DNA of 14,491 nt from IMG/VR virus record IMGVR_UViG_2579778989_000010, one strand, 5' to 3'. Positions 1 through 14,491 of this stretch are shown piece by piece. Within the stretch, counting starts at the first letter, position 1, and each line of letters starts with the position of its first letter. The DNA is from a virus (Duplodnaviria > Heunggongvirae > Uroviricota > Caudoviricetes). Position numbers and translations under genes: made by a program. Below the pieces are notes generated by a model that worked only from the letters and a program-made list of their open reading frames with translations, searched no databases and was not told the DNA's origin.

Positions 1-738
1 TCATTCACTCTCTTTCAAACCAGTTTTAACTGTTTGTGGTTTTGGGTAAGGCTGGACTTTGAATAGCTTTGTGTTAAGGCGTTTTCTGGCTCTCTTGTCC
101 AGAAACCGGATGTAACGAAACTGACGGAATTTATGAACACTGGCTCTGTCGATATTAGCCCGCAGATGTTCACCTCGCTGTCCTCCTCGTTTGATTGCAT
201 TCTTGCAAATCTCGTGATACCACTCGCCATCAAGTTCATAGAATGTTGTTTCATGACTGCCTACATAATCAAAATTGCTTGCCTGGTACACGACACCAAG
301 ACAGCCACAACGCTCATCTGCAAACGACTGAACCCACTGCACCTGCGGATAAAGTTGTCTGATTAGTTTGAGCGCGTAACTGATTGCCCTTGATTCGGAG
401 TTTCTCGGCATACAGTCATGCAGCCATAACCGGTTAAGCTCCATATATTCGCGGTTCTGCGTGCCAGTTACGACGCGTGCACCATTGTTTGGATTAAGGG
501 CATAACCCCATTGCATTACGCCAACCAGCTCCCGTTCTGAAAATATGCCCAGATGAAGGTAGGAATTATTTACGAAACGATGGCTGTAATGTTTATTGAC
601 GACGACCAGCCGGGCCAGCCAGCAACTTATTGTCTCAACCCGTAACTCACGGGAGCCATAACCGACGATATTGTCGTTATAGTGAATAAGTTCAGGCGTG
701 CTGATGATACGGGATGTAACTTGCTTTCTGTTCCCCAC
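1..738 (-). CDS. mom: Mom-like DNA modification protein; start uncertain (GTG at 738-736 is one candidate, ORF frame is open up to 933)
   Basis: Long ORF in the other frame overlapping the 3' end of a clear com homologue, as in Mu com-mom; the ~230-245 aa portion downstream of the com stop fits Mom size. Identification is by context rather than recognised Mom motifs. Confidence 0.55.
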
Positions 739-892
739 GACAGGATTTCCTTGTGTATGTGGGGTGCTCTGTGGCGCTCTGAGATGTGATTTGATTGAGG
801 GTTTTACAGCGCGGACATTTAACTTCCAGATAACTGAAGCTGGCTCGTGCCAGTAGCTTGTTACAATGTCGGCACCGTATGTTTCGATACAT
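692..892 (-). CDS. com: Com zinc-finger translational activator of mom
   Basis: Translation [35 protein letters not shown] has the CxxC...CxxC finger and close similarity to Mu Com (IRCKNCNKLL...EIRCPRCK); GGAGG Shine-Dalgarno about 8-10 nt upstream of the ATG at 892; the ORF track's longer form from 937 lacks an RBS. Confidence 0.75.
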
Positions 893-937
893 GGCCGCAT
901 AACCTCCTGCTTTGTTGTTGATATCTTTATCACTCAA

Positions 938-1030
938 TCGATCGACAAAAACGATCGATTTGATTTATTTAATTGATACAACAAATAACACGAAATGTCA
1001 TTAGCGAAAATTTATGAGTTTGATCACTAA
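938..1030. promoter_or_regulatory. AT-rich region upstream of com with three GATC (Dam) sites, two inside a repeated ATCGATCG palindrome; candidate mom/com regulatory region
   Basis: GATC at 940-943, 953-956 and 1022-1025; in Mu, Dam methylation of GATC sites upstream of mom controls repressor binding. No confident -35/-10 pair found. Confidence 0.3.
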
Positions 1031-1148
1031 TTTTAAACGGTGCTGTAACGCATAAGTGCTGAATGATTGTACATTTGAATACCGCAAAGCAAACAAATCA
1101 ACTAATTTATAGAAGTCAATTGGTTAATTGCCAGCGTAAGAGGCTGCT

Positions 1149-1442
1149 ATGGACAATCATGTAACGACGAGAAATCGAAAAATGATTGAAAATGCGGAAA
1201 TCTATAATGATTATTTTTCCGATTATTCAGATGCCTGCAAATACAGTTCGAGTGCGGGAGAGTTCATATGCTTCAACTTTTTTATTAAATCTTATGTTTT
1301 TCCTCCACTGCAAGAAGATGGAGGTGTGCCACCTCCTGAAATCACTTTGCACCGTATAGCCTCCGTCTCAATGATGGAGCAACAGGCTAATGAGCTGTAT
1401 AGCATTCTGGGAACGATTCTACAAAAGCGTGAATCGGACTAA
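1149..1442 (+). CDS. hypothetical protein (97 aa), AT-rich, divergent from com
   Basis: ATG preceded by AAGAGG Shine-Dalgarno about 6 nt upstream; followed by two hairpins; no recognisable domain. Confidence 0.5.
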   Translation: MDNHVTTRNRKMIENAEIYNDYFSDYSDACKYSSSAGEFICFNFFIKSYVFPPLQEDGGVPPPEITLHRIASVSMMEQQANELYSILGTILQKRESD

Positions 1443-1523
1443 TGATACCGGTTCATTTGCCTGCCCGGATGGGGAAGCAGGATTGACTGCTCCATAAGCA
1501 GCTATATTTCTGAATACGAAATA

Positions 1524-1552
1524 CTATCCAGCGATTACATATGGCTGGATAG
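1524..1552. repeat. perfect 9-bp inverted repeat CTATCCAGC-(11 nt)-GCTGGATAG
   Basis: Read directly from sequence; lies between convergent genes; could be an RNA hairpin or a protein-binding palindrome. Confidence 0.5.
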
Positions 1553-1577
1553 CGGCAAAGATGTTTTCATTAGTGTC

Positions 1578-1610
1578 AAACCGGCAGAGGACACCACCGG
1601 TTTGTATTGT
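1578..1610 (+). terminator. hairpin AAACCGG-(12 nt)-CCGGTTT followed by GTATTGT; weak candidate terminator between convergent genes
   Basis: 7-bp stem with a partly T-rich 3' flank on the plus strand; lies 3' of both 1149..1442(+) and 1610..1864(-). Confidence 0.3.
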
Positions 1611-1864
1611 TACATCATGGTACTGTCAGTTCCGGGCTGAGCCGGGTCTGGTTGCTCTGGCTGCGCGTCGGTTTTCGGCTCATTATCAGCATCACTGGCC
1701 GCAACTGCTGGCCCAATAAGTTTTGCCAGCACTTCATCAACGTAAGTGTCGATTTGTGCCTCAAAATCCTTGCGGACCTGCGCTTTCAGCAACTTATTTA
1801 CTTCACCGGAATACAGTGCCTGTTTTACCAGGTCTTCAGTGACGGTGCCTTTAATTTCTGGCAT
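1610..1864 (-). CDS. hypothetical small acidic protein (84 aa)
   Basis: ATG preceded by strong AAGGAGG Shine-Dalgarno; C-terminal half is Asp/Glu/Pro/Gln-rich; no recognisable domain. Confidence 0.55.
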   Translation of the reverse strand: MPEIKGTVTEDLVKQALYSGEVNKLLKAQVRKDFEAQIDTYVDEVLAKLIGPAVAASDADNEPKTDAQPEQPDPAQPGTDSTMM

Positions 1865-1899
1865 GTATATCCTCCTTATGCGGGAATAAAGCCCTGCAA

Positions 1900-2082
1900 T
1901 CAGGGCTGGGTCGGGTCTTTTGGGAGCGGAGTTACCTGCGCTGTTTTACTGAGTTTTTCAGCTGCTGCGTCCTCAATTTTGCGGCGAACATAATTTCTGA
2001 TGGCCTTATAACCACCACTCACCAGATATAACGCACATACTGCCGTGCAGAAATACAATAAAATAAGCTGTAAAAATGTCAT
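1900..2082 (-). CDS. small membrane protein (60 aa): one N-terminal hydrophobic helix and a charged C-terminal tail
   Basis: ATG at 2082 preceded by GGGAGG Shine-Dalgarno about 5 nt upstream (the ORF track's start at 2094 has no RBS); MTFLQLILLYFCTAVCALYLVSGGY is a predicted transmembrane segment. Confidence 0.45.
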   Translation of the reverse strand: MTFLQLILLYFCTAVCALYLVSGGYKAIRNYVRRKIEDAAAEKLSKTAQVTPLPKDPTQP

Positions 2083-2178
2083 TATCCCTCCCAATTATTG
2101 ACATGGTGTTGACACCGGTAATATCTGTTAGGTAAAAAGGTGCACTGCATTTTTTGCTTTGGATATAACGATCTTTTT

Positions 2179-2220
2179 GCCGCCGGTTTCTTGTTTTCCC
2201 TTACCGGCGGCATTTTTTTA
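2179..2220 (+). terminator. intrinsic terminator, plus-strand specific: GCCGCCGGT-(15 nt)-ACCGGCGGC followed by ATTTTTTTA
   Basis: 9-bp GC-rich stem plus a 7-T run on the plus strand; the minus-strand RNA has A's 3' of the stem, so it should not terminate the esterase transcript. Confidence 0.5.
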
Positions 2221-2226
2221 TCCTGC

Positions 2227-4281
2227 TTACGCGTTATTCACTTCCACCACGATACTGTCAATCAGTACCGGGTAAGTCGCATTTTTAGTGATATCGGTCA
2301 CGCGCAACTTGTCTGCCGTAAACGTGCCGACCGGAGACTGCGACAGCATGAATGGTGTCCCGTCCTTACCATCAATGACCGGCGTCACCTCAATACTGTT
2401 GTTACCGGCAAAACGGAAGCCCAGCGTATGCCATTCGTTATTAAATGCGCCGAATGACCCCAGCTTCGTGTTCTGCGCCGTGTTTCCTTTGTGATACATC
2501 ACGTTAAGGTCTGTGGCATCGCTCTGTACGTAGAACGATGCCAGCAGGTTATGACCGGCATTTCCTTCCAGAGTAACCCCTTGCGGCAGGGCAGAAACCG
2601 GCCAGTACAGCGCCAGTGCGTACTGATTAGCCGTAAGCGCGCCATCGAGTTTAAAACGACAACTGACAAGACCACCTTTACCCAGCAGGTCCGCACCATT
2701 ACCAGCATCATGCTCAAGGTACCAGGGGGCTCTTCCTGTTTCCTTGGTCAGTTTCATTGCCTTACCCCCGCTGGCTCCGGCATCATCCACGATTTGAGCC
2801 TTGCCACCTCCGGCAGCCCAACCCTGTGGTGTCAACCGTCCTTCAGACTCAGATGCCCGGTAAGCAAATAGCGTACTCATCGTCGTGGTGTCTGCGGGTG
2901 GCGTGGACGGTTTTGATGGTGTATCAGGTGACGGCTTCTCATCCGGTGGTGTCACGGTCTGCCCGCGCATCAGTTCAGCCGTGCGCCCTGCATGGAGCAT
3001 AATAGCTGAGGCCAGACGGTCTGAAATGACGCCCCTGCGTGCCCATGAGCTGAAATGGCTGTCACGCTGTGTCGAAACAAAACTGCCCTGGGTTCGGGAT
3101 GCTGCACCGTAATACCCGACAGCCACAATATCCGGGTCTTCCGCCGGAGCATTCGTTGGCGTGCTCTGTCCATTCTCATCCGTCAGGAACGGTACAAAGA
3201 AAATTTTCTGTGCTTCCTTGCCTTTGTAGCCACCGTATACTGCCTCATATTTATCGGTGCCAGCGTTTTTCCAGTAATACGTGGTATCACCGCAAATCCA
3301 CGGCACCGTGGTGGCATTTCCACTCACGCACTGCGCAGCAAGCGGAGCCAGGTCAGTTCTGAACTGCTGAACCATGGCCGTGAATAAACTATTATGCTGC
3401 TGGCTTCCTGAGGCAAGGTCTGCCTCTCCCTGCATCCAGACCACAGCCAGAAGTTTGTTTTTCGGGTTTTTCGCCAGCGCGACTTTGGTGCGGCTTACCA
3501 GGTCCTGATACAGAGGTTTACCGGCCCCCCAGCGTGAAGAATCAGCGGAAGCACCGCTGGCCTCACTGAATGAGCCGTCGGCTCCAGTGGTGAATGCTGA
3601 CCCGCCACGACAACAGGGCACCAGAAGTATCCCGGCATTCTGTGGGATATAGGGAAGCAGTTTTTTGGCAATATGCAACCCCTGACCGACAGTCCCGTAC
3701 TGGCCTTTTGCCAGATCAGCTTTCGGGTGGTTTATCCCGCTCATATCCTGAACATCATGCAGGCAGTGGTCTGCCGGAATGATGTCGTTGTATGTACACG
3801 ACGTACCGTTGGGCGTTACCGTACTGCGGCGTGCCAGTTGCTTAATGCGTGGGTCCGGGCGGTCAAACGAATCCGGTAACGGCAGCCCCTCGCCGTAGGC
3901 CATGCCATTTGACTGACCCGCGAGAATGACAACAAAGTAATATTCCGGCTCTGAACTGCTGCCATTCGTGCTACCGGAAGGCCCGGCGTTATCCGGTGCA
4001 TTCCAGTCGGAGGGCGTGAGCGTTCCGGCCACGTCAGATGTGATTGGAATGATGCCAGTCACGCCTGAACTGGTGATTTCTGCACTGGGATTACCGGATA
4101 CCGGCATTACCCATAATGGCTCTTTCGTGCTGAAGCGGATCACGCAGTCTGCGAAGGTGATCCCCCCTTTATTACCCGAAGGGCGGAAAGGGCTTTCAAT
4201 AAATGCCACCGTGCCACCGGCAACCTTGACTGAAAACTCTCCGGGCATGGCGGAGAGCATTTTCCACTTGGAGTCTGACAT
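2227..4281 (-). CDS. SASA/SGNH-family esterase (sialate O-acetylesterase-like; architecture resembles prophage NanS-p), 684 aa
   Basis: SGNH/SASA-like motifs in order: ILAGQSNGMAYG (block I GQSN), VWMQGEAD, RDSHFSSW (candidate DxxH block); N-terminal ~100 aa and C-terminal ~250 aa extra domains; Shine-Dalgarno is weak. Confidence 0.65.
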   Translation of the reverse strand: MSDSKWKMLSAMPGEFSVKVAGGTVAFIESPFRPSGNKGGITFADCVIRFSTKEPLWVMPVSGNPSAEITSSGVTGIIPITSDVAGTLTPSDWNAPDNAGPSGSTNGSSSEPEYYFVVILAGQSNGMAYGEGLPLPDSFDRPDPRIKQLARRSTVTPNGTSCTYNDIIPADHCLHDVQDMSGINHPKADLAKGQYGTVGQGLHIAKKLLPYIPQNAGILLVPCCRGGSAFTTGADGSFSEASGASADSSRWGAGKPLYQDLVSRTKVALAKNPKNKLLAVVWMQGEADLASGSQQHNSLFTAMVQQFRTDLAPLAAQCVSGNATTVPWICGDTTYYWKNAGTDKYEAVYGGYKGKEAQKIFFVPFLTDENGQSTPTNAPAEDPDIVAVGYYGAASRTQGSFVSTQRDSHFSSWARRGVISDRLASAIMLHAGRTAELMRGQTVTPPDEKPSPDTPSKPSTPPADTTTMSTLFAYRASESEGRLTPQGWAAGGGKAQIVDDAGASGGKAMKLTKETGRAPWYLEHDAGNGADLLGKGGLVSCRFKLDGALTANQYALALYWPVSALPQGVTLEGNAGHNLLASFYVQSDATDLNVMYHKGNTAQNTKLGSFGAFNNEWHTLGFRFAGNNSIEVTPVIDGKDGTPFMLSQSPVGTFTADKLRVTDITKNATYPVLIDSIVVEVNNA

Positions 4282-4366
4282 CGTCTTTTCTGCCTGTTTC
4301 TGAATTAAACAGAGTCAGAATAGCGACCGCTGAAAAATATGTGTTTTGCGGAAATTCAAAAAAGCG

Positions 4367-4939
4367 TCACGGTACTTTTGGTGACGGAGCTGGTGAGGCA
4401 GGAAAATAACGATAAAGGGTGGAAAGGCCAATATCAAATATCAGTGCGATTTGTTTACGGGACTCGCCATTAGCCAGCAAACGGGCGATTTGCTCCCGCT
4501 CTTTCTCTGTCAGTTTCTGAGGTCTGCCGCCATGACGCCCCTGAGCACGGGCAGCAGCAAGACCCGCGCGTGTACGTTCAATAATGAGTTCCCGCTCCAT
4601 TTCCGCCAGCGCGCCCATTATATGGAAAAAGAAACGTCCCATGGGAGTGGATGTATCAATATTGTCCGTAATGCTGCGGAAGTTAACGCCGCGTTGCCGG
4701 AGTTCTTCTGTTAAAAGGACAAGGTGCTGCATACTGCGTCCAAGGCGATCCAGTTTCCAGACCAGCAGGGTATCCCCTGGCCGGAGTCGCTTTAATGCGC
4801 GTTTAAGTCCGGGACGCTCCCTTGTCTTACCGCTTATTCTGTCTTCGAAAAACAGCTCACATCCTGCACATTCCAGCGCATTTCTTTGTAGCGCCGTATT
4901 CTGGTCATTTGTTGACACCCTGATATACCCAATCAGCAT
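4367..4939 (-). CDS. gin: Gin/Pin-family serine DNA invertase
   Basis: MLIGYIRVSTNDQNTALQRNAL...VWKLDRLGRSM...MGRFFFHIMGALAEMERELIIERT is near-identical in pattern to Mu Gin / e14 Pin (catalytic Ser in RVST); AAGGAA Shine-Dalgarno and a TATAAT-like hexamer upstream. Confidence 0.9.
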   Translation of the reverse strand: MLIGYIRVSTNDQNTALQRNALECAGCELFFEDRISGKTRERPGLKRALKRLRPGDTLLVWKLDRLGRSMQHLVLLTEELRQRGVNFRSITDNIDTSTPMGRFFFHIMGALAEMERELIIERTRAGLAAARAQGRHGGRPQKLTEKEREQIARLLANGESRKQIALIFDIGLSTLYRYFPASPAPSPKVP

Positions 4940-5004
4940 ACGATTTCCTTATTATAAAAAGCCGGAATTGTCGCATGAGGAATAAAACAGAGTTAATCCT
5001 GGCT

Positions 5005-5030
5005 TTCCTGAAAACCTCGGTTTACGGGAA
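5005..5030. other. gix-like recombination (crossover) site for Gin
   Basis: TTCCTGAAAACCTCGGTTTACGGGAA is an imperfect palindrome whose AAAACCTCGGTTTAC core matches the Mu gix/hix core as I recall it; sits between gin and the S' segment as in Mu. Confidence 0.6.
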
Positions 5031-5378
5031 ACGGTAAACAGGGCGGCGAATGCTCTGCCATCGGACGGCACCGCCGTTGCCGCGAATAGACTCGCCACCC
5101 CAAGAAATATTAATGGGGTTCCCTTTGACGGGACGCAGGACATAAACATCACTTCTGGTATAACACAGCAGGATGCGGATTCCCGATATATCCAGGATAT
5201 CAGGCTGGGAGCAGAGAACAGGCAGGTAATGTACGGTGGGGCATATTACTCTGCGTACGGTAATGTTATGGCAGGCCTGCAGATTGACAGTAAAGTTGAT
5301 GCTTCAAACGATTTTATAGCATTCAGACCCCTGCAAAAATTAGTCGGAGGTACATGGATTACGGTATCTCAGTTATAA
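5031..5378 (+). CDS. tail-fibre variable C-terminal segment (S'-like), start-less; expressible only when fused to a constant S part by inversion
   Basis: Frame is open from just upstream of gix to TAA at 5376-5378 with no upstream start; translation ...AANALPSDGTAVAANRLATPRNINGVPFDGTQDINITSG... resembles tail-fibre repeat regions; followed by a tail-fibre assembly gene. Confidence 0.5.
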   Translation, partial: TVNRAANALPSDGTAVAANRLATPRNINGVPFDGTQDINITSGITQQDADSRYIQDIRLGAENRQVMYGGAYYSAYGNVMAGLQIDSKVDASNDFIAFRPLQKLVGGTWITVSQL

Positions 5379-5429
5379 ATAGTCAGTAAATAATATATTT
5401 TAAAACAGATTTATTTCCAGGAGGATTTT

Positions 5430-5951
5430 ATGGAACTAAAAAATATAACCCGTTATTATCCTGAAAATATGCCATATGGTAATAATGTTCAGTATTTCCA
5501 GAGTGAAGATGGTAAGGATTTCTACGAATCCCTGCCATTATTCACCAAAAAATATAAACTTTGCATAACACCTGACAGCGGCGTTATCTGCTCAATATCA
5601 CAGGACGCCTCGGCGCTGTATCCTGCGGGGTTTTCTGTGGTTGAGGTCGATGAACTCCCTGAAGGCACGGATATTTCAGGAAACTGGAAGTTTGATAATG
5701 GCATAATCTCCCGTATTCCGGTTAACTACGCAAGAAAACTGGAAGCAATGCGCCAGTCATATCTTAATCAGGCATATGAAAAAATTAATGACTGGAGAAC
5801 GGAGCTACAACTGGGCACCATCAGCGATGAAGACAGAGCAGCACTTACCCAATGGATGGCATACATCAGTCAGGTGAAGAAAATGGAACTACCCGCCATT
5901 AAAACAGAAGCTGAATTTAACGCCATTAAATGGCCTGAGCAGCCACAGTAA
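5430..5951 (+). CDS. tail fibre assembly protein (U'/Tfa family)
   Basis: AGGAGG Shine-Dalgarno; 173 aa; LGTISDEDRAALTQWMAYISQVKKM... ending WPEQPQ resembles Mu U/U' and other tail fibre assembly proteins. Confidence 0.8.
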   Translation: MELKNITRYYPENMPYGNNVQYFQSEDGKDFYESLPLFTKKYKLCITPDSGVICSISQDASALYPAGFSVVEVDELPEGTDISGNWKFDNGIISRIPVNYARKLEAMRQSYLNQAYEKINDWRTELQLGTISDEDRAALTQWMAYISQVKKMELPAIKTEAEFNAIKWPEQPQ

Positions 5952-5955
5952 TAAA

Positions 5956-5973
5956 GAAGGCCGGAAGGCCTTC
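5956..5973. terminator. short hairpin GAAGGCC-GGAA-GGCCTTC immediately 3' of U'
   Basis: 7-bp stem read from sequence; no strong T-tract, so terminator function is uncertain. Confidence 0.3.
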
Positions 5974-5982
5974 TGAATATCA

Positions 5983-6231
5983 TTATATACTTGCAGCCGT
6001 CACCCATGCTTCATTTAACAGATACTGCAACGGCCGGTAATACACGCCGCCGACGTTATCTGCCGTATTCTTACCGACATCCTGTACTTTAATTCCGGTA
6101 AGAACATTGCCGCCCCCCAGATTCAGATCCCAGCTTTCCCATGTTCCGGGCATATGTGCGGTCACCGACCCCAGTCTTATGGCGGTTAATGGCGTTTTCC
6201 CCGCCATCAGCGATAAAGCCCTGCCGGTGCA
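5983..6231 (-). pseudogene. start-less open frame of unknown origin, possibly a C-terminal remnant of a late (tail-fibre-related) gene left at the deletion junction
   Basis: Frame open for 82 codons from a stop at 6232-6234 with no upstream partner; overlaps the gemA-like ORF's 3' end in another frame; Gly/Asn/Val-rich like fibre C-termini. Weak. Confidence 0.25.
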
Positions 6232-6481
6232 TCACTTTCCAGATGGCGCGAATTTTGGCGGTCACCGTCCCCGGTTTTAAGGCCCGGTTAACCGGCTTCT
6301 GACGCACTTTAAAACCGCGTTTTTTGAAAACATCCAGCACGCGGGATAACTCATCCGGTGACATATCCCGGCAACTGGGTTTGCCGGTGGCTGCCAGTAG
6401 TACGGATGTGTAGGTCTCATGGTCAAGCTGTAGATCGCGTTTTGCGACATGTATTAAGGTAATCAGGGAAGCGCGATTCAT
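6089..6481 (-). CDS. gemA: GemA/gp16-like early protein (DUF1018-like); C-terminus probably altered by the deletion junction
   Basis: MNRASLITLIHVAKRDLQLD...GKPSCRDMS...KIRAIWKVMHRQGFIADGGENAIN matches the Mu-like gp16 pattern as I recall it; the last ~25 residues lose the expected pattern; GGAGA Shine-Dalgarno. Confidence 0.5.
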   Translation of the reverse strand: MNRASLITLIHVAKRDLQLDHETYTSVLLAATGKPSCRDMSPDELSRVLDVFKKRGFKVRQKPVNRALKPGTVTAKIRAIWKVMHRQGFIADGGENAINRHKTGVGDRTYARNMGKLGSESGGRQCSYRN

Positions 6482-6545
6482 TATCGTGTCTCCGTAACAA
6501 CAGGCGGCATGGCAACGCCGCCCGGATAAAACTAAAGGTATCGAT

Positions 6546-6956
6546 ATGAAAATAGATTACGATGAAGTATTAAGTATTCTCACAACTTTTCAGGATGCTG
6601 AAACACCTTTCCTTACACTACAGGATCTGGGCATGGCTGAGGCAGAAGGAGAGGAAAAGGATAAAAAAGTTTTTCATCTTATGCTTCTCGCTGATAATGG
6701 CTCAATTGTTAATGGTGATATGCAGTCAGAAACACCCAAATATATTGGTTTCTTTTTCCATTCTCTGGGCGTTGGTTTCAGAAACACGCCCATTATGCTT
6801 ACCCAGCAGGGGCATGATTTAGCTAACGCCCTGAGAAAAAAACCAATCCTTGAAAGAATCAAAAAGGAGTTTACAGACGCACCATTTGATCTAATTAAAG
6901 AAGTTACCAAATCAATGTTAACCAGGTTCGTCAAAGAACGTATTGGGATTGACTGA
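6546..6956 (+). CDS. hypothetical protein (136 aa), AT-rich, opposite strand to the early operon
   Basis: ATG with AAAGG Shine-Dalgarno; visibly more AT-rich than flanking genes; divergent from the gemA-like gene; 3' end overlaps the convergent gene 6918..7226 by 39 bp. Confidence 0.5.
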   Translation: MKIDYDEVLSILTTFQDAETPFLTLQDLGMAEAEGEEKDKKVFHLMLLADNGSIVNGDMQSETPKYIGFFFHSLGVGFRNTPIMLTQQGHDLANALRKKPILERIKKEFTDAPFDLIKEVTKSMLTRFVKERIGID

Positions 6957-7226
6957 ACAACTTAATTCAGCCAGTAATCGCAGGGCGGCGACAGCCGCCT
7001 GCTTGTCACTTCTTTTAGCTATTTCCGCAAGAGTATGCACAATCCATAACGGACTTAACGCCACGGCTGAATCCAGAATCATGTCATCCATAATAATTTC
7101 TGGCATATCCCGCTTGTCACATTCTTTATCCATAAAAGAAACGAATTTCTCTGCATCTTCCGGTTTCATGCCTCCGGCGATAAGGATTTTGCGATATTCA
7201 TAAGACGATCTTAATTCAATACTCAT
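6918..7226 (-). CDS. hypothetical protein (102 aa)
   Basis: ATG with AGGTGA Shine-Dalgarno 5 nt upstream, immediately after the TAA of the preceding gene. Confidence 0.5.
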   Translation of the reverse strand: MSIELRSSYEYRKILIAGGMKPEDAEKFVSFMDKECDKRDMPEIIMDDMILDSAVALSPLWIVHTLAEIAKRSDKQAAVAALRLLAELSCSVNPNTFFDEPG

Positions 7227-7241
7227 TATTCACCTGCCTGC

Positions 7242-7592
7242 TTAATCTGTTTCCAGTGCTTTGCTACGGGCTATAGCCTCACATTCAAAAAATACCGACT
7301 CCGGCACGCGCTCTTTTAATTCACGAACAAGGAAATCATTAACGCGTTCATGACGTCTTATATTTCTTTCCTTTTCCTCCTGGCGCAATACAGCAAGGCG
7401 GTATTCAACAGCCCGGCGTTGTTTCTGAAAGACAGCCAGTGCTTTTCTGGCAGCATTACGCCATGCATCATCGCCACATGGTGCGTATTCAAGCTGAAAT
7501 TTAATCTCTTCAATAGTTTCTTTGATTTTTGCCAGCAAGCTAAGACAGTCGCTTATTGTCTCCAGCTTTTCATTATCAATATAACTTCTCAC
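7242..7592 (-). CDS. hypothetical early protein (116 aa from GTG; charged, probably helical)
   Basis: GTG at 7592-7590 overlaps the upstream TGA (GTGA coupling); the ORF track's longer form from 7634 overlaps the upstream gene by 46 bp. Confidence 0.45.
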   Translation of the reverse strand: MRSYIDNEKLETISDCLSLLAKIKETIEEIKFQLEYAPCGDDAWRNAARKALAVFQKQRRAVEYRLAVLRQEEKERNIRRHERVNDFLVRELKERVPESVFFECEAIARSKALETD

Positions 7593-7918
7593 GCATTCAC
7601 CTCCCGTAATTCCGGTAAAGCCGAAATATGACACCAGTGCGTCACCTGTCCGTCTTCATCTTCAAGGCAGGCTCCGGTTTCTTCATCAACAAAAAAGCCT
7701 TCATACCCCATATGGCCGATGCGCAGCTCCTGACGGTGACCATACTGAACAATCAGCACGACAGCCTCCATATCAGGTGGGAAAGCATCATTCAGTGAAT
7801 GCCAGGGATAACCGCGTAAATCCCCGAAATAAACACCGGTCAGCGTTCCGCCACAGAGCGGCATTCCGGCGGCACACACAAGAGGTTCATCTGATTCAAC
7901 AAATAAGGTCGTTATCAT
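7589..7918 (-). CDS. hypothetical early protein (109 aa)
   Basis: ATG overlaps the upstream stop as ATGA; same strand and tight packing as the rest of the operon. Confidence 0.5.
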   Translation of the reverse strand: MITTLFVESDEPLVCAAGMPLCGGTLTGVYFGDLRGYPWHSLNDAFPPDMEAVVLIVQYGHRQELRIGHMGYEGFFVDEETGACLEDEDGQVTHWCHISALPELREVNA

Positions 7919-8469: not shown

Positions 8470-8985
8470 TCACCCCCTGACTCGCTTTTCGGCAGCATAA
8501 AACTCATCAGACAGAATTTCGGTCATTTTCCGTTTTGCGGAATCATCTTCGCACTGAAGATAAATCACATTGTCAACGCAGAACCAGTTCACGGGACCAT
8601 ACAATATTGCTGAGAAGTCAATACCCAGCCAGAACAACAGGGCATCGGTTCTGGCATACGTGACGGGCGAATATTCACGCCACAGACTGTTCAGTTCATC
8701 AGAGGCAACACGCAGGGCTTTAGGGATACGTGATGTGCGCGGTGTGCAGCTCCAGCCATTCGACGCAGTCGGTTTTCGCCATAAGTCGCGATGAAAAGGA
8801 TATTTGTCCTCCGTAAAACGCAGTCCCTTAAAACAAAAACCACTGATACTGAATTCAAATACCGACCGGCACGCAACATTCAGCACGGCCTCAAGGCGTT
8901 TCGCCTCATCTTTTACCGTCTGGCAGTCCTGCTGGTATTTTTGCCACGCAGCCAGCGCGGAAGGGTTTGATGTTTTAAAGAACAT
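8470..8985 (-). CDS. hypothetical early protein (171 aa)
   Basis: ATG overlaps the upstream TAA (TAATG); GGAGGTG Shine-Dalgarno. Confidence 0.5.
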   Translation of the reverse strand: MFFKTSNPSALAAWQKYQQDCQTVKDEAKRLEAVLNVACRSVFEFSISGFCFKGLRFTEDKYPFHRDLWRKPTASNGWSCTPRTSRIPKALRVASDELNSLWREYSPVTYARTDALLFWLGIDFSAILYGPVNWFCVDNVIYLQCEDDSAKRKMTEILSDEFYAAEKRVRG

Positions 8986-10161: not shown

Positions 10162-10692
10162 TTATTTATTCAGTCCGGCATCCTGTTCAAAAGGCTCGAC
10201 ATAAAAACTTTCAGCGCCTTTATTCACCTTTATACCGGCAATGCCTTTCACCGCATCCGGCTCCGCCAGGACGGCTTCCTTGTTCACTTCCTCTTTCGTG
10301 CGGATGAATCGCTCAAGCCCCATACGGCGCAGCGTGTCAATCACACCTTCCACATCACGGCTGACGCTGCATGATGGCGTTCCCAGCCGCCATGACACCG
10401 TTCCGGTGGTCAGATTGGCAGTTTTGGTTTTGCCGCCGTTCGTCAGCTCATCACGGTTGGTTTTACACCAGTCCTGAATCCCTTTAAAAAGCACTTTGAT
10501 TTGCTTTTTAAGATTTTCAATCTGCGGCGTATAACGGGCGGTGATTTCTGCCACTTCATCATTCATCGCCGTTTCCAGGCGCAGCGCCTCTCGCTGAATA
10601 TCGCCCAGGGTGCGGATATCGCGGCTGACTTCTTCGCGGGTCTGCGGTGCGGCCTCGGCTACAGCCTTTAATTTTGTAACGCGTTTTGCCAT
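10162..10692 (-). CDS. gam: Gam host-nuclease inhibitor (Mu Gam / Ku-like DNA end-binding protein)
   Basis: RLETAMNDEVAEIT and NRDELTNGGKTKTANLTTGTVSWR...LERFIRTKEEVNKEA closely match my recollection of Mu Gam; 176 aa; AAGGA Shine-Dalgarno. Confidence 0.8.
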   Translation of the reverse strand: MAKRVTKLKAVAEAAPQTREEVSRDIRTLGDIQREALRLETAMNDEVAEITARYTPQIENLKKQIKVLFKGIQDWCKTNRDELTNGGKTKTANLTTGTVSWRLGTPSCSVSRDVEGVIDTLRRMGLERFIRTKEEVNKEAVLAEPDAVKGIAGIKVNKGAESFYVEPFEQDAGLNK

Positions 10693-12044: not shown

Positions 12045-12977
12045 TCACACCTGTGAGAGTAATTCAGGGTTGGTATAAACCTCTTTAAAGGCCGCATTAA
12101 TATGTTTTTCTGTCAGCGCCGCGCCTTCACCGCTGGCGGTGAGCCACGCCTGGTTAAGCGTATGTGTCAGAACGCGTAACGCTCCCGGCTTTTCAGCGAT
12201 AGCCTGCATGACGGCCAGCTCGGCCTCACCACTGATCCCCCACGCCATGGCAATGGCCAGCACATCCGCCTTTTTGGCCTTGCGAAGTTGTTTTGTACGG
12301 GCAAGACGGCTGAACAGGCGCGATAAATCATCAAAGGCGCGGCGTCCACCTTTAAACAATCCGCGCGGGTTACCAATAAGCACCATCCCGATCCCCGTGG
12401 CGTCCTGAATTGCCCGGAGTTGCTCCAGACCGTCAATACCAAGATGATCCGCCTCATCCACAATCACCAGTCCACGCGTTCCCATCAGGCGACGGCGGAT
12501 GGCGCGGGATAATGCCCCTTTGTTCGCGCGGGTGTAATCAATCCCCAGCGCATCGGCCAGCTCCAGCAGACACTCCGTGACGCTGGAGTGCGCGGGTGAC
12601 AGGGTGATCATCCAGGTGTTTGGTTGCTCCTGGCAGTAATTACGGGCAGTGGCCGTTTTACCCACACCCGGTACGCCCACAATAACGTTAATACAGCCCA
12701 TCAGGCGAACCGCCTGAAACAGTGCGCGCAGCTCCTGGACTGTCTGAGTTTCCACAAACTGCGGCGGTTCCGGCAGTGCGCTTTGTTTATTCCAGTTCTC
12801 ATACCAGGAGCGCAGGGAAGCAGCCACAGCAGCGTTATCGCCTTTATATTTTCCCTTACGGAAAGCCGATAATGTGCCGTCGGAAATTCCCGCCTCTCTG
12901 GCGATGGCATACTGCGTCAGTACGCCGCCATCAATAAGTTCATCAATGGTCTTGATTACATCGTTAATATCGGTCAT
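12045..12977 (-). CDS. B: MuB-like AAA+ ATPase (transposition target-DNA activator) with N-terminal HTH
   Basis: Walker A GVPGVGKT, VIVDEADHLG (Walker B), KPGALRVL, and N-terminal GISDGTLSAFRKGKYKGDN all parallel Mu B; ~310 aa versus 312 in Mu; GAGGTGA Shine-Dalgarno before ATG 12977. Confidence 0.85.
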   Translation of the reverse strand: MTDINDVIKTIDELIDGGVLTQYAIAREAGISDGTLSAFRKGKYKGDNAAVAASLRSWYENWNKQSALPEPPQFVETQTVQELRALFQAVRLMGCINVIVGVPGVGKTATARNYCQEQPNTWMITLSPAHSSVTECLLELADALGIDYTRANKGALSRAIRRRLMGTRGLVIVDEADHLGIDGLEQLRAIQDATGIGMVLIGNPRGLFKGGRRAFDDLSRLFSRLARTKQLRKAKKADVLAIAMAWGISGEAELAVMQAIAEKPGALRVLTHTLNQAWLTASGEGAALTEKHINAAFKEVYTNPELLSQV

Positions 12978-13059
12978 ATTATTCACCTCGCTTGAGACAG
13001 CATTCTCCGAGACTGAAACCTCAAATAACCTGAGTCACCCCTCGGGTTATTTTTTTATT

Positions 13060-14491
13060 TCAGGCCAGCGGATCACTTTCTTTTAATTTCGCTTCGAGCA
13101 ACTGCAATCCCCGCTGGAAATTACGCTCGTATTCTTCATCAGGTTCATCGTCAGCGACCGGTTGCTGAACGGTCACCGTATTACCCACAGGGCGGTATAT
13201 GTTTTCCAGCCAGGGCTCCTGCGGCTTGTGCTCCAGCACGTTGACAACCTCATCCTCGGCATCACGGATTTTTTCCTCTGCGCGTTTACGCATGCCTTTA
13301 AGGCGCTGCTGCTGTTTGTAGTATTCCGCGCTGACAGGGAAGGCTTCGCGTTTATTGCCGTCCCATATCCGAGTAATACAGAAACGGTTTGCCATGATGG
13401 CGAATACCGTGCTGTATGGCACCGGCTACGGCGAAAACATTTTCAGCCAGGTCAAGGCTCCAGCCCACCACAAAGCGCGTGCCACCGTCGATAACAAAGG
13501 TCACTTCCGGTGCGAATGGCCGCCCGTGAACCGGGTGCGCGCATTTCAGCTTCATGCCGTGACCGTCACCAATCCAGACATAATTCACCGGCATTCTGGA
13601 CCAGTCGCGGCGCGTGAATCCCTCAAGCTGACGGTATTCACTGCCAGTTACCCGGCCTTTTTGTTTCACCACTTCCGGCAGTTTCTTCATTGCGCGGCGA
13701 ATGGTGTCATAAGAGGGCATGATATCGAGCATATAAGGCTCATCAGCGTGCCGGTGCTGCCATTCAGCAACAAAATCCTCGTAAGCCTCGGTCATTGGTC
13801 GGCCGTTTGACTGGCGATACTGCGCCAGAAATTCGGGCAGCCAGTTAATATCTTCGGCTTTTATTTCCTGGCGTTTACCCGGTGCCAGTAAAAGCAGGCG
13901 TTCAGCGGCGTTCTGTGCCTTGTTAAAGGCCGCAATCCAGCGTTTCAGCGTGATTTCACTCAACGCGCGGCTGTTTCCCTTTTTGGCGTTCGCCGTCTCA
14001 ACCATTGCCACAATGCGCTCGTCCAGTTGTGATCGTGCCAGGCTGTTAACGAGGAACCGGATAGCCTTAGCGCAACTAAAGCCGGGTTGTTGCGCGATTT
14101 TCAGCACCTCGCTGACGATCGCTATTCGTGCCTCTGCCACTTTACGTTGGTTTTCAGTCAGGGCATTGAGGCGTTCGACCATCAGTTGGGGTGATCCGCG
14201 ATATGCCTCCACCGCATCAACCACGGCAGGTGAGCGTCTGGCCTTTGTCACCACCGGAGCCGGTGATTCATCGGCTTTTTGCGTCATCAGTTGCAGGGCG
14301 TAGCGTTCACGTAATGCCTGCTGCGTCACTTCAGGTAAACAGTCGATGCTGTATTCAGTTGCTTTAGAGCCTGAGCGACGACGGGAACAACAGCTTTTCC
14401 CTTGTACGTAACGTTGTAATGCCTGGCGAATACCTTTTGTTGTAGCAGGCATTCCGGGCGCGCCAATCAGTTCTTTTGCAATGACATACAT
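13060..14491 (-). pseudogene. A: MuA-like DDE transposase, 5' end at or beyond the window edge, disrupted by an internal deletion and frame change near 13340-13430
   Basis: N-terminal 379-aa frame aligns with MuA from the N-terminal DNA-binding region through the first two catalytic Asp regions (NYVWIGDGHG..., FLYYSDMGRQ) and then hits a stop at 13352; a second frame (13060..13422) encodes the MuA C-terminus (EYYKQQQRLK..., PVGNT..., DDEPDEEYE). About 200 residues including the catalytic Glu are absent. Confidence 0.7.

Follow-up and report, generated by a model that had tools for sequence, protein, structure and literature searches.

The window analysed here is the whole stretch of 14,491 nucleotides (nt) of the IMG/VR virus record IMGVR_UViG_2579778989_000010, a piece of an Escherichia coli/Shigella Mu-like prophage in which the early operon lies on the minus strand. 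From transposase A, which starts at 14491, down to gemA at 6089-6481, all early genes are on the minus strand and are mostly coupled, except for one open reading frame (ORF) at 6546-6956, which is the sole plus-strand gene within this region. We identified this ORF as a member of the DUF2513 family and refer to it as the DUF2513 gene. We find it fairly probable that it is a genuine, translated accessory gene, which forms a long-resident cargo of Mu-like prophages and acts in the lysogen. The features on which the argument turns are the following.

6452-6981: variable block, delimited by blastn against locus L002 and by the annotation of L002; O157-type prophages have two small minus-strand genes here
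6482-6545: spacer of 64 base pairs (bp) between the divergent start codons of gemA and the DUF2513 gene; 30-71 bp in other lineages
6501-6524, minus strand: spacer hairpin, with the palindrome core GGCGGC-ATGGCAAC-GCCGCC at 6503-6522
6534-6538, plus strand: ribosome-binding site AAAGG, 7 nt before the ATG, as read from the sequence
6546-6956, plus strand: DUF2513-family gene, 136 amino acids (aa), ATG start, acidic product (isoelectric point (pI) 5.2) with a predicted winged-helix fold
6918-6956: tail-to-tail overlap of 39 bp between the DUF2513 gene and p102, in exact codon-antisense register
6918-7226, minus strand: p102, an acidic, all-helical early-operon protein of 102 aa that matches phrog_1988 (E=1.3e-38) and contains the motif DKQAAVAAL
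6980-7002, plus strand: downstream hairpin GCAGG(G)CGGC-GACA-GCCGCCTGC, with a T-rich tail at 7003-7016, within the coding sequence of p102 and 24 nt past the stop of the DUF2513 gene

The initial annotation of the window had described an opposite-strand 136-aa ORF in the minus-strand early region with its own ribosome-binding site, a GGCGGC-N8-GCCGCC palindrome in the spacer and a 39-bp overlap with the 102-aa gene; both ORFs and all of these features were found, the palindrome as a single occurrence. The described divergence from a gemA-like gene was likewise borne out in layout, with the correction that gemA is here a truncated fusion product. Homologues of the DUF2513 gene are preceded by comparable ribosome-binding sites (AAGGA, GGAG, GAGG), which are kept in every lineage. 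The ORF had also been called clearly more AT-rich, and indeed its GC content of 0.387 and its GC content at third codon positions of 0.343 are the lowest among the 21 genes scored (window mean 0.492). Because the neighbouring genes p102 (0.424) and p130 (0.433) are low as well, this AT-richness is that of a low-GC patch and not of a sharp island.

The statement that neither protein is recognisable was wrong for the plus-strand ORF, the product of which matches DUF2513 and phrog_585. Specifically, an identical protein is named 'DUF2513 domain-containing protein' in RefSeq (WP_000687317.1), and the window protein itself matches Pfam PF10711 (DUF2513) with E=6.6e-5 and 23.6 bits, which is under the gathering score of 29.6, and phrog_585 (PHROG 585) over its full length with E=7e-18. 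Homologues that are 46-50% identical carry a precomputed PF10711 match, and close homologues exceed the Pfam threshold. A full HMMER scan of 1.84 billion representative proteins yielded 114 clusters, almost all of them single-domain proteins of 126-150 aa. An AlphaFold2 model generated from a 45-sequence alignment (predicted local distance difference test (pLDDT) 92.9; predicted template modelling score 0.85) predicts a PadR/MarR/TubR-like winged helix. The model contains the single-domain winged-helix core of ~130-150 aa that characterizes DUF2513/phrog_585 proteins as well as the dimerisation helices that accompany this fold in MarR and PadR proteins, and the protein is probably dimeric. Two conserved motifs, FHLxLLxENGLI and PIRLTxxGHDFA, are common to the family, and in our reading they would represent, in terms of PadR/MarR proteins, the final part of the recognition helix and the wing, respectively.

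In size, single-domain organization and motifs, the window protein is like the small prophage-borne winged-helix proteins of DUF2513 (PF10711), YjcQ (PF09639) and PHROG 585. It differs from them in its Pfam score below the gathering score, the family has no assigned function, and membership gives no mechanism. From PadR subfamily-2, MarR, HxlR and TubR proteins it differs in sequence family, acidity, helix 2 and an insertion that the wing of the DUF2513 fold carries, and its DNA binding is only putative. No MarR, PadR or HxlR family matched in Pfam or NCBIfam, and the NCBIfam search as a whole gave nothing for the DUF2513 protein. There was no PDB sequence match at E<=10, a Foldseek comparison of the model with the PDB and the BFVD viral models gave nothing at E<=0.001, and domain fusions in distant homologues revealed no informative association. 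The ratio of nonsynonymous to synonymous substitution rates (dN/dS) is 0.09-0.21 between related Mu-like lineages and 0.47 in one pair with very few differences. The values of 0.09-0.21 show that the protein is under constraint, and the gene is real and selected.

A scan of IMG/VR gave 28 loci with DUF2513 homologues, most of them in Mu-like prophages. We pooled all fetched loci (cited here by L numbers) and clustered their DUF2513 genes at 80% identity, which resulted in 30 lineages, 12 of which are gemA-linked. In these 12 Mu-like lineages, homologues that are 45-54% identical occupy the same slot in the same orientation, and the copies are found in prophages of Escherichia, Salmonella, Edwardsiella, Pantoea and Kluyvera. 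In the usual layout, the DUF2513 gene diverges from the gemA start over the 30-71-bp spacer and converges on the preceding early gene; an Edwardsiella prophage has the identical architecture including the 39-bp overlap. The Kluyvera-type order is gemA, a p102-like gene, the DUF2513 gene (on the opposite strand), a 119-aa gene and mor. Because the pair sits after gemA and before mor in this type, the constant features are the p102/DUF2513 pair and its position 1-2 genes before mor, not the adjacency to gemA. Over the same loci, divergence is comparable for DUF2513 (45-54% identity), gemA (44-68%) and p102 (32-38%), which argues that the arrangement is old and mostly vertically inherited.

The slot is also optional. 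In a census of the 80 best gemA loci, a DUF2513 gene was present at 16, a count that includes a 19-codon remnant and a truncated copy, and it was missing from about 80%; it is not, then, a core early gene that Mu-like phages generally have here. At most of the other gemA loci, gemA is translationally coupled to an upstream same-strand gene, and a dozen adjacent ORFs in alternative slots had no Pfam match. Mu, D108, the SfMu-type records and the other isolated Mu-type phages of the phage collection have no DUF2513 gene, and p102 is likewise absent from them. Conservation is clade-wide and not universal among Mu-like phages; universal conservation is what the initial annotation had named as refuting its proposal of an inserted accessory gene. 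Of that proposal, the accessory and dispensable character stands (16 of 80 gemA loci, absence from Mu), while the notion of a recent insertion does not, with slot, orientation and overlap kept at 45-54% identity. These distributions show a gene that a clade of Mu-like prophages has long kept in a single slot but can do without. Two loci are deletion derivatives: in L073, a 19-codon DUF2513 remnant is left at 2394-2450 with p102 intact, and in L072, DUF2513 is truncated to a 115-aa copy at 2089-2436.

Within E. coli, the exact block was found in 6 of 5426 complete genomes, and 219 of 225 E. coli records match solely from 6982 rightwards, with 91-94% identity. The flanks of the 6452-6981 block are 89-95% identical to O157-type prophages, in which p102 is 80-86% identical and has another C-terminal tail. 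Because every other p102 lineage carries DUF2513, we infer that the O157 type lost DUF2513 by block replacement. The exact 136-aa protein is present in 4252 assembly-collection blocks (L172-L179 among them), including Shigella sonnei 53G. Some genomes, e.g., E. coli AP022811 and GCA_045618685, have it in two or more prophage copies.

Beyond Mu-like phages, the family is a self-contained single-gene mobile cargo. Distant homologues that are 30-38% identical have no gemA or p102 nearby, and a search for a p102-like partner in 18 non-Mu lineages gave none even at E<=10. In Yersinia, a copy within a lambda-like tail module runs against the strand of that module; a P2-like prophage has one in the gap between genes S (tail) and V (baseplate); in a P4-like island of Vibrio, the gene adjoins an AAA_15/21 ATPase and a PAAR toxin; in Janthinobacterium, it follows a VgrG-effector cluster; and in a Klebsiella lambdoid phage, it separates the lysis genes from the terminase. 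Other copies are single ORFs between attC-type repeats in the integron cassette arrays of Vibrio and Microbulbifer. Canonical terminators follow the gene in the non-Mu copies, and the GC content of the DUF2513 gene is 4-11 points under that of the flanks, being lower in 18 of 19 contexts. As for the integrons, the attC-like repeats TAACAAAC...GGCGTTAG flank DUF2513 cassettes in chromosomal integrons of Vibrio, Microbulbifer and a Chromatiaceae genome (L156, L165, L170, L163), and L156 has two paralogous DUF2513 cassettes at 3853-4491.

Phage morons and lysogenic-conversion genes include lambda bor and lom as well as P2 old, tin and fun. Of the features that define a moron, the DUF2513 gene has the patchy presence and the lower GC content, but not an own promoter and terminator: no promoter of its own is recognizable, and its terminator is sub-threshold. 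It is further like morons in that it is optional and runs against the operon flow and in that its family recurs at classic moron sites, and it differs from them in what appears to be a long vertical residence and not a recent gain.

Our working hypothesis is that one enterobacterial Mu-like clade has kept DUF2513 long-term at the distal end of the early operon, 1-2 genes upstream of mor. The gene would run leftward as the repressor gene does, against the early operon, and be transcribed while the early promoter is off, i.e., in the lysogen, and head-on early transcription would turn it off upon induction. Its product would serve the lysogen or prophage via nucleic-acid or protein binding, with exclusion of other phages or control of the read-through or expression of the gemA-mor segment as candidate roles, and p102 may be the counterpart that is expressed early. 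The gene resides in the early region from B to mor, which is poorly conserved and largely without an assigned function (PMC8705779). The gem operon (gemA-mor) of Mu has been described as constitutively expressed in lysogens (Paolozzi and Ghelardini 1992, as cited in PMC3820752). To the extent that this citation conveys it, the gem operon suggests that the distal early segment, the same neighbourhood as that of DUF2513, can be its own transcription unit; Mu itself, however, has neither DUF2513 nor p102. In Fc02, a Mu-like Pseudomonas phage, a repressor-strand gene expressed in the lysogen overlaps an early-operon gene, and both confer superinfection exclusion (PMC9936078). Like DUF2513/p102, this olg1/gene 10 pair is an overlapping opposite-strand pair in a transposable phage, but it adjoins the repressor and ner and not the gemA/mor end, and its proteins are unrelated to DUF2513 and p102.

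Several observations weigh against our working hypothesis. Using a scan tool and a separate relaxed scan, we found no sigma-70-like promoter within 300 nt upstream of the gene in the window and in five other Mu-like lineages, even at 8/12 matches, and an intact prophage had none in 1.7 kb; only orientation and conservation thus speak for expression in the lysogen. The downstream hairpin, which is a possible weak plus-strand terminator for DUF2513 (the 64 nt at 6957-7020 that hold it fold on the plus strand with -17.7 kcal/mol, z -1.75), is under the threshold of the terminator scan, is kept in all Mu-like lineages and is also present in DUF2513-less phages. Because the latter have it, it may be a mere coding feature of p102, in which it codes for DKQAAVAAL, and the idea of a dedicated DUF2513 terminator is weakened. 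On the side of the protein, the family has an acidic median pI of 5.3-5.7, its putative recognition helix is hydrophobic and, in the N-terminal half, acidic, and a variable acidic loop takes the place of helix 2 of the helix-turn-helix; because of these features, DNA binding by the modelled protein is doubtful. The link to p102 could stem from adjacency and shared ancestry alone, and our literature searches yielded no functional data on DUF2513, PF10711, YjcQ or Mu-like early-region accessory genes.

The downstream hairpin deserves a separate remark. In DUF2513-less prophages (L002, L054, L049, L055), it shows a compensatory synonymous change to GGCAGC/GCTGCC (G:C to A:T) and some single-mismatch variants. 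It is also the right edge of the variable block. Its persistence may reflect selection on the structure of the RNA or DNA or, given its place at the block edge, a recombination hotspot.

p102 and the DUF2513 gene are physically interlocked. The stop codon of p102 is the antisense of Leu125 (TTA) of DUF2513, and in the overlapping lineages the register is always exactly codon-antisense, with the partner stop lying antisense to a TTA or CTA leucine codon. Overlaps of 39 bp occur in five of the Mu-like lineages, of 30 bp in two and of 18 bp in two, and one lineage has a 2-nt gap. A convergent partner of the p102 family, as recognized by the motif DKxAAVAAL, is present in 11 of the 12 gemA-linked lineages, and the twelfth ends at a contig end. 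Because they are encoded antisense to the conserved C-terminus of DUF2513, the tails of the partners are alike, and the last ~20 residues of p102 differ from those of DUF2513-less homologues. That the overlap arose as a by-product at a cassette junction, where p102 ran on into foreign DNA, is rejected as the whole story, since the antisense-register overlap recurs at 45-54% identity. p102 itself has no Pfam, NCBIfam or PADLOC family, its PDB sequence matches are just weak ones to designed helical repeats, and its AlphaFold2 model is poor (pLDDT 52) and too weak for a fold search. Such a convergent DUF2513/p102 partnership appears to be undescribed so far.

The initial annotation had considered the two genes compatible with an exclusion, immunity or toxin-antitoxin module. 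As far as co-occurrence goes, the link between them holds (11 of 12 Mu-like lineages), but a type II toxin-antitoxin module is not what we find: the genes are convergent and not in one operon, neither belongs to a known toxin or antitoxin family, and co-occurrence is not obligate, each gene being found alone. In a broader version, DUF2513 would be a lysogen effector (exclusion, abortive infection or toxicity) and p102 an early antidote that protects the lytic cycle, with the overlap giving reciprocal transcriptional or antisense control. Such a conflict between the two proteins would fit with the fact that 50 gemA loci have neither gene, that the linkage is asymmetric (p102 is alone in one derived lineage, the O157 type, while in Mu-like phages, DUF2513 always comes with p102), that the pair shifts as a unit relative to gemA, and that some homologues lie in defence or toxin neighbourhoods; the overlapping opposite-strand exclusion genes of Fc02 provide a precedent (PMC9936078). 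However, Pfam, NCBIfam and PADLOC gave no toxin, antitoxin or defence family for either protein (in PADLOC-DB 2.0, there was no match for DUF2513 at E<=1 and only one of E=0.068, to PDC-S72, for p102). Moreover, DUF2513 occurs without a p102-like gene in the 18 non-Mu lineages, and a toxic effector without its antidote is not expected to survive; similarly, L175 has an intact DUF2513 gene beside a p102 shortened to 47 aa (8540-8683). Linkage of physically overlapping genes is expected from ancestry, and the similarity of the p102 tails is a by-product of antisense coding. On balance, we consider this explanation rather unlikely.

More specific still, and in our view improbable, is a switch-coupled two-component device of p102 and DUF2513 upstream of mor that would act as a gate between the early and middle phases. 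In the lysogen, leftward transcription of the DUF2513 gene, together with the winged-helix protein that it yields, would keep stray early transcripts from reading through into gemA-mor or would exclude incoming phages; upon induction, head-on early transcription and the early protein p102 would silence or neutralise DUF2513. If true, this would be a new kind of early-middle gate in a transposable phage. DUF2513 is a widespread, unstudied cargo family in prophages, satellites and integron cassettes, and the exact protein is present in thousands of E. coli and S. sonnei assemblies. Phage exclusion or mor gating, if either were true, would provide a function for the whole family and a reason why defective prophages keep the gene intact; otherwise, it would be one more accessory gene without an assigned function. 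The odd ORF is now a defined object: one gene, one constant partner, and one slot before the activator of the lytic cascade.

MarR- and PadR-type regulators control divergently transcribed targets. In the same manner, DUF2513 could be a local divergent regulator, the winged-helix dimer of which would bind the inverted repeat in the spacer to repress or tune gemA-mor and itself, keeping the middle-gene activator Mor off in the lysogen. The PadR/MarR-like fold is consistent with this, as are the divergence from gemA over a 30-71-bp spacer in most Mu-like lineages and the position always 1-2 genes upstream of mor, even with gemA relocated. Inverted repeats with 8-nt spacing are present in three different spacer types (GGCGGC/GCCGCC, GGCGGT/ACCGCC and CTCAT/ATGAG), and the GGCGGC-N8-GCCGCC pattern is rare by chance, with one occurrence in the window versus 0.04 expected. 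For Mu, a separate gem promoter has been reported according to a citation in PMC3820752. Against this stand the acidity of the protein and its degenerate helix-turn-helix; in addition, homologues occur in gemA/mor-free contexts (integron cassettes, lambda- or P2-like phages), L024 has no comparable GC-rich repeat, and no promoter was found in the spacer on either strand.

The repeat also folds much better as minus-strand RNA, with a stem of 10 bp and a loop of 4 nt; UUGUUAC comes next, and the hairpin precedes the gemA start by ~20 nt. The 64-nt spacer folds with -20.4 kcal/mol (z -2.0) on the minus strand, compared with a 6-bp stem (z -0.6) on the plus strand. In the Salmonella-type locus L003, the arms have changed in a compensatory manner to GGCGGT/ACCGCC, and the minus strand reads hairpin-TCTTTTTTGG, with a canonical T-run, directly before the gemA ribosome-binding site, i.e., a textbook terminator; L009 has one as well. 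Because of the better minus-strand fold and the L003 terminator, we read the spacer hairpin as a putative feature of the early transcript, an attenuator or stabiliser ahead of gemA-mor, rather than as an operator, which is less probable. Overall, we consider a divergent regulator improbable. The canonical intrinsic terminator on the minus strand of L003 (3932-4000) and L009 lies immediately 5' of the gemA ribosome-binding site, and the intact E. coli prophage L001 has another terminator between gemA and mor (7546-7561). Together, these terminators suggest attenuated or segmented transcription at the distal early operon. No Rfam match was obtained in 6000-7700.

Finally, a recent horizontal insertion or a chance ORF without a role for the phage, for which the low GC content, the presence of the block in just 6 of the 5426 complete E. 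coli genomes and the lack of a detectable promoter would speak, is highly improbable: slot, orientation and overlap are kept at 45-54% identity over five genera, divergence is commensurate with that of gemA and p102, the gene shows purifying selection and a confidently predicted fold, and a recent insertion is rejected on synteny and contradicted also by dN/dS.

The prophage in the window is a defective deletion derivative. Its other features of relevance are the following.

14491 (start), minus strand: transposase A, split into ORFs 13352-14491 and 13060-13422
12045-12986, minus strand: B, an early gene
10162-10692, minus strand: Gam, an early gene
6089-6481, minus strand: truncated gemA (Pfam GemA, E=4.7e-18), which diverges from the DUF2513 gene

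The first ~100 residues of the gemA translation match the full-length GemA of L001 and the translation then differs, the remainder being read-through over a deletion junction into unrelated codons. Homology to intact prophages ends at ~6182-6191, and what lies to the left belongs to the right end of a Mu-like prophage; because of this jump, ~15 kb with mor and the lysis, head and tail genes are absent from the window prophage. The right-end stretch (1-6188) contains a tail-fibre assembly gene, a Gin-like invertase, a 684-aa SASA/DUF6645 protein and Mom. The same truncated gemA is present in the IMG/VR contig L101. Compared with intact copies, transposase A lacks ~660 bp, with a junction near 13366-13371, and its split is a second sign of an immobile element. 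E. coli and S. sonnei 53G carry this prophage in intact form as well.

At the right end of the prophage, the 684-aa protein is encoded at 2227-4281 on the minus strand, between the invertase and mom; it combines a carbohydrate-esterase domain (SASA) with DUF6645 at the C-terminus, and its gene may be another cargo or serve to modify receptors. The stretch 900-1350 is strongly AT-rich (GC 0.33-0.37) and lies upstream of mom, where the com/mom control region is expected. In the early region, a 130-aa ORF at 7242-7634 with a GTG start shares 46 bp with the preceding gene at 7589-7918; because the RefSeq version of this ORF has 116 aa, its true start is probably internal, near 7592.

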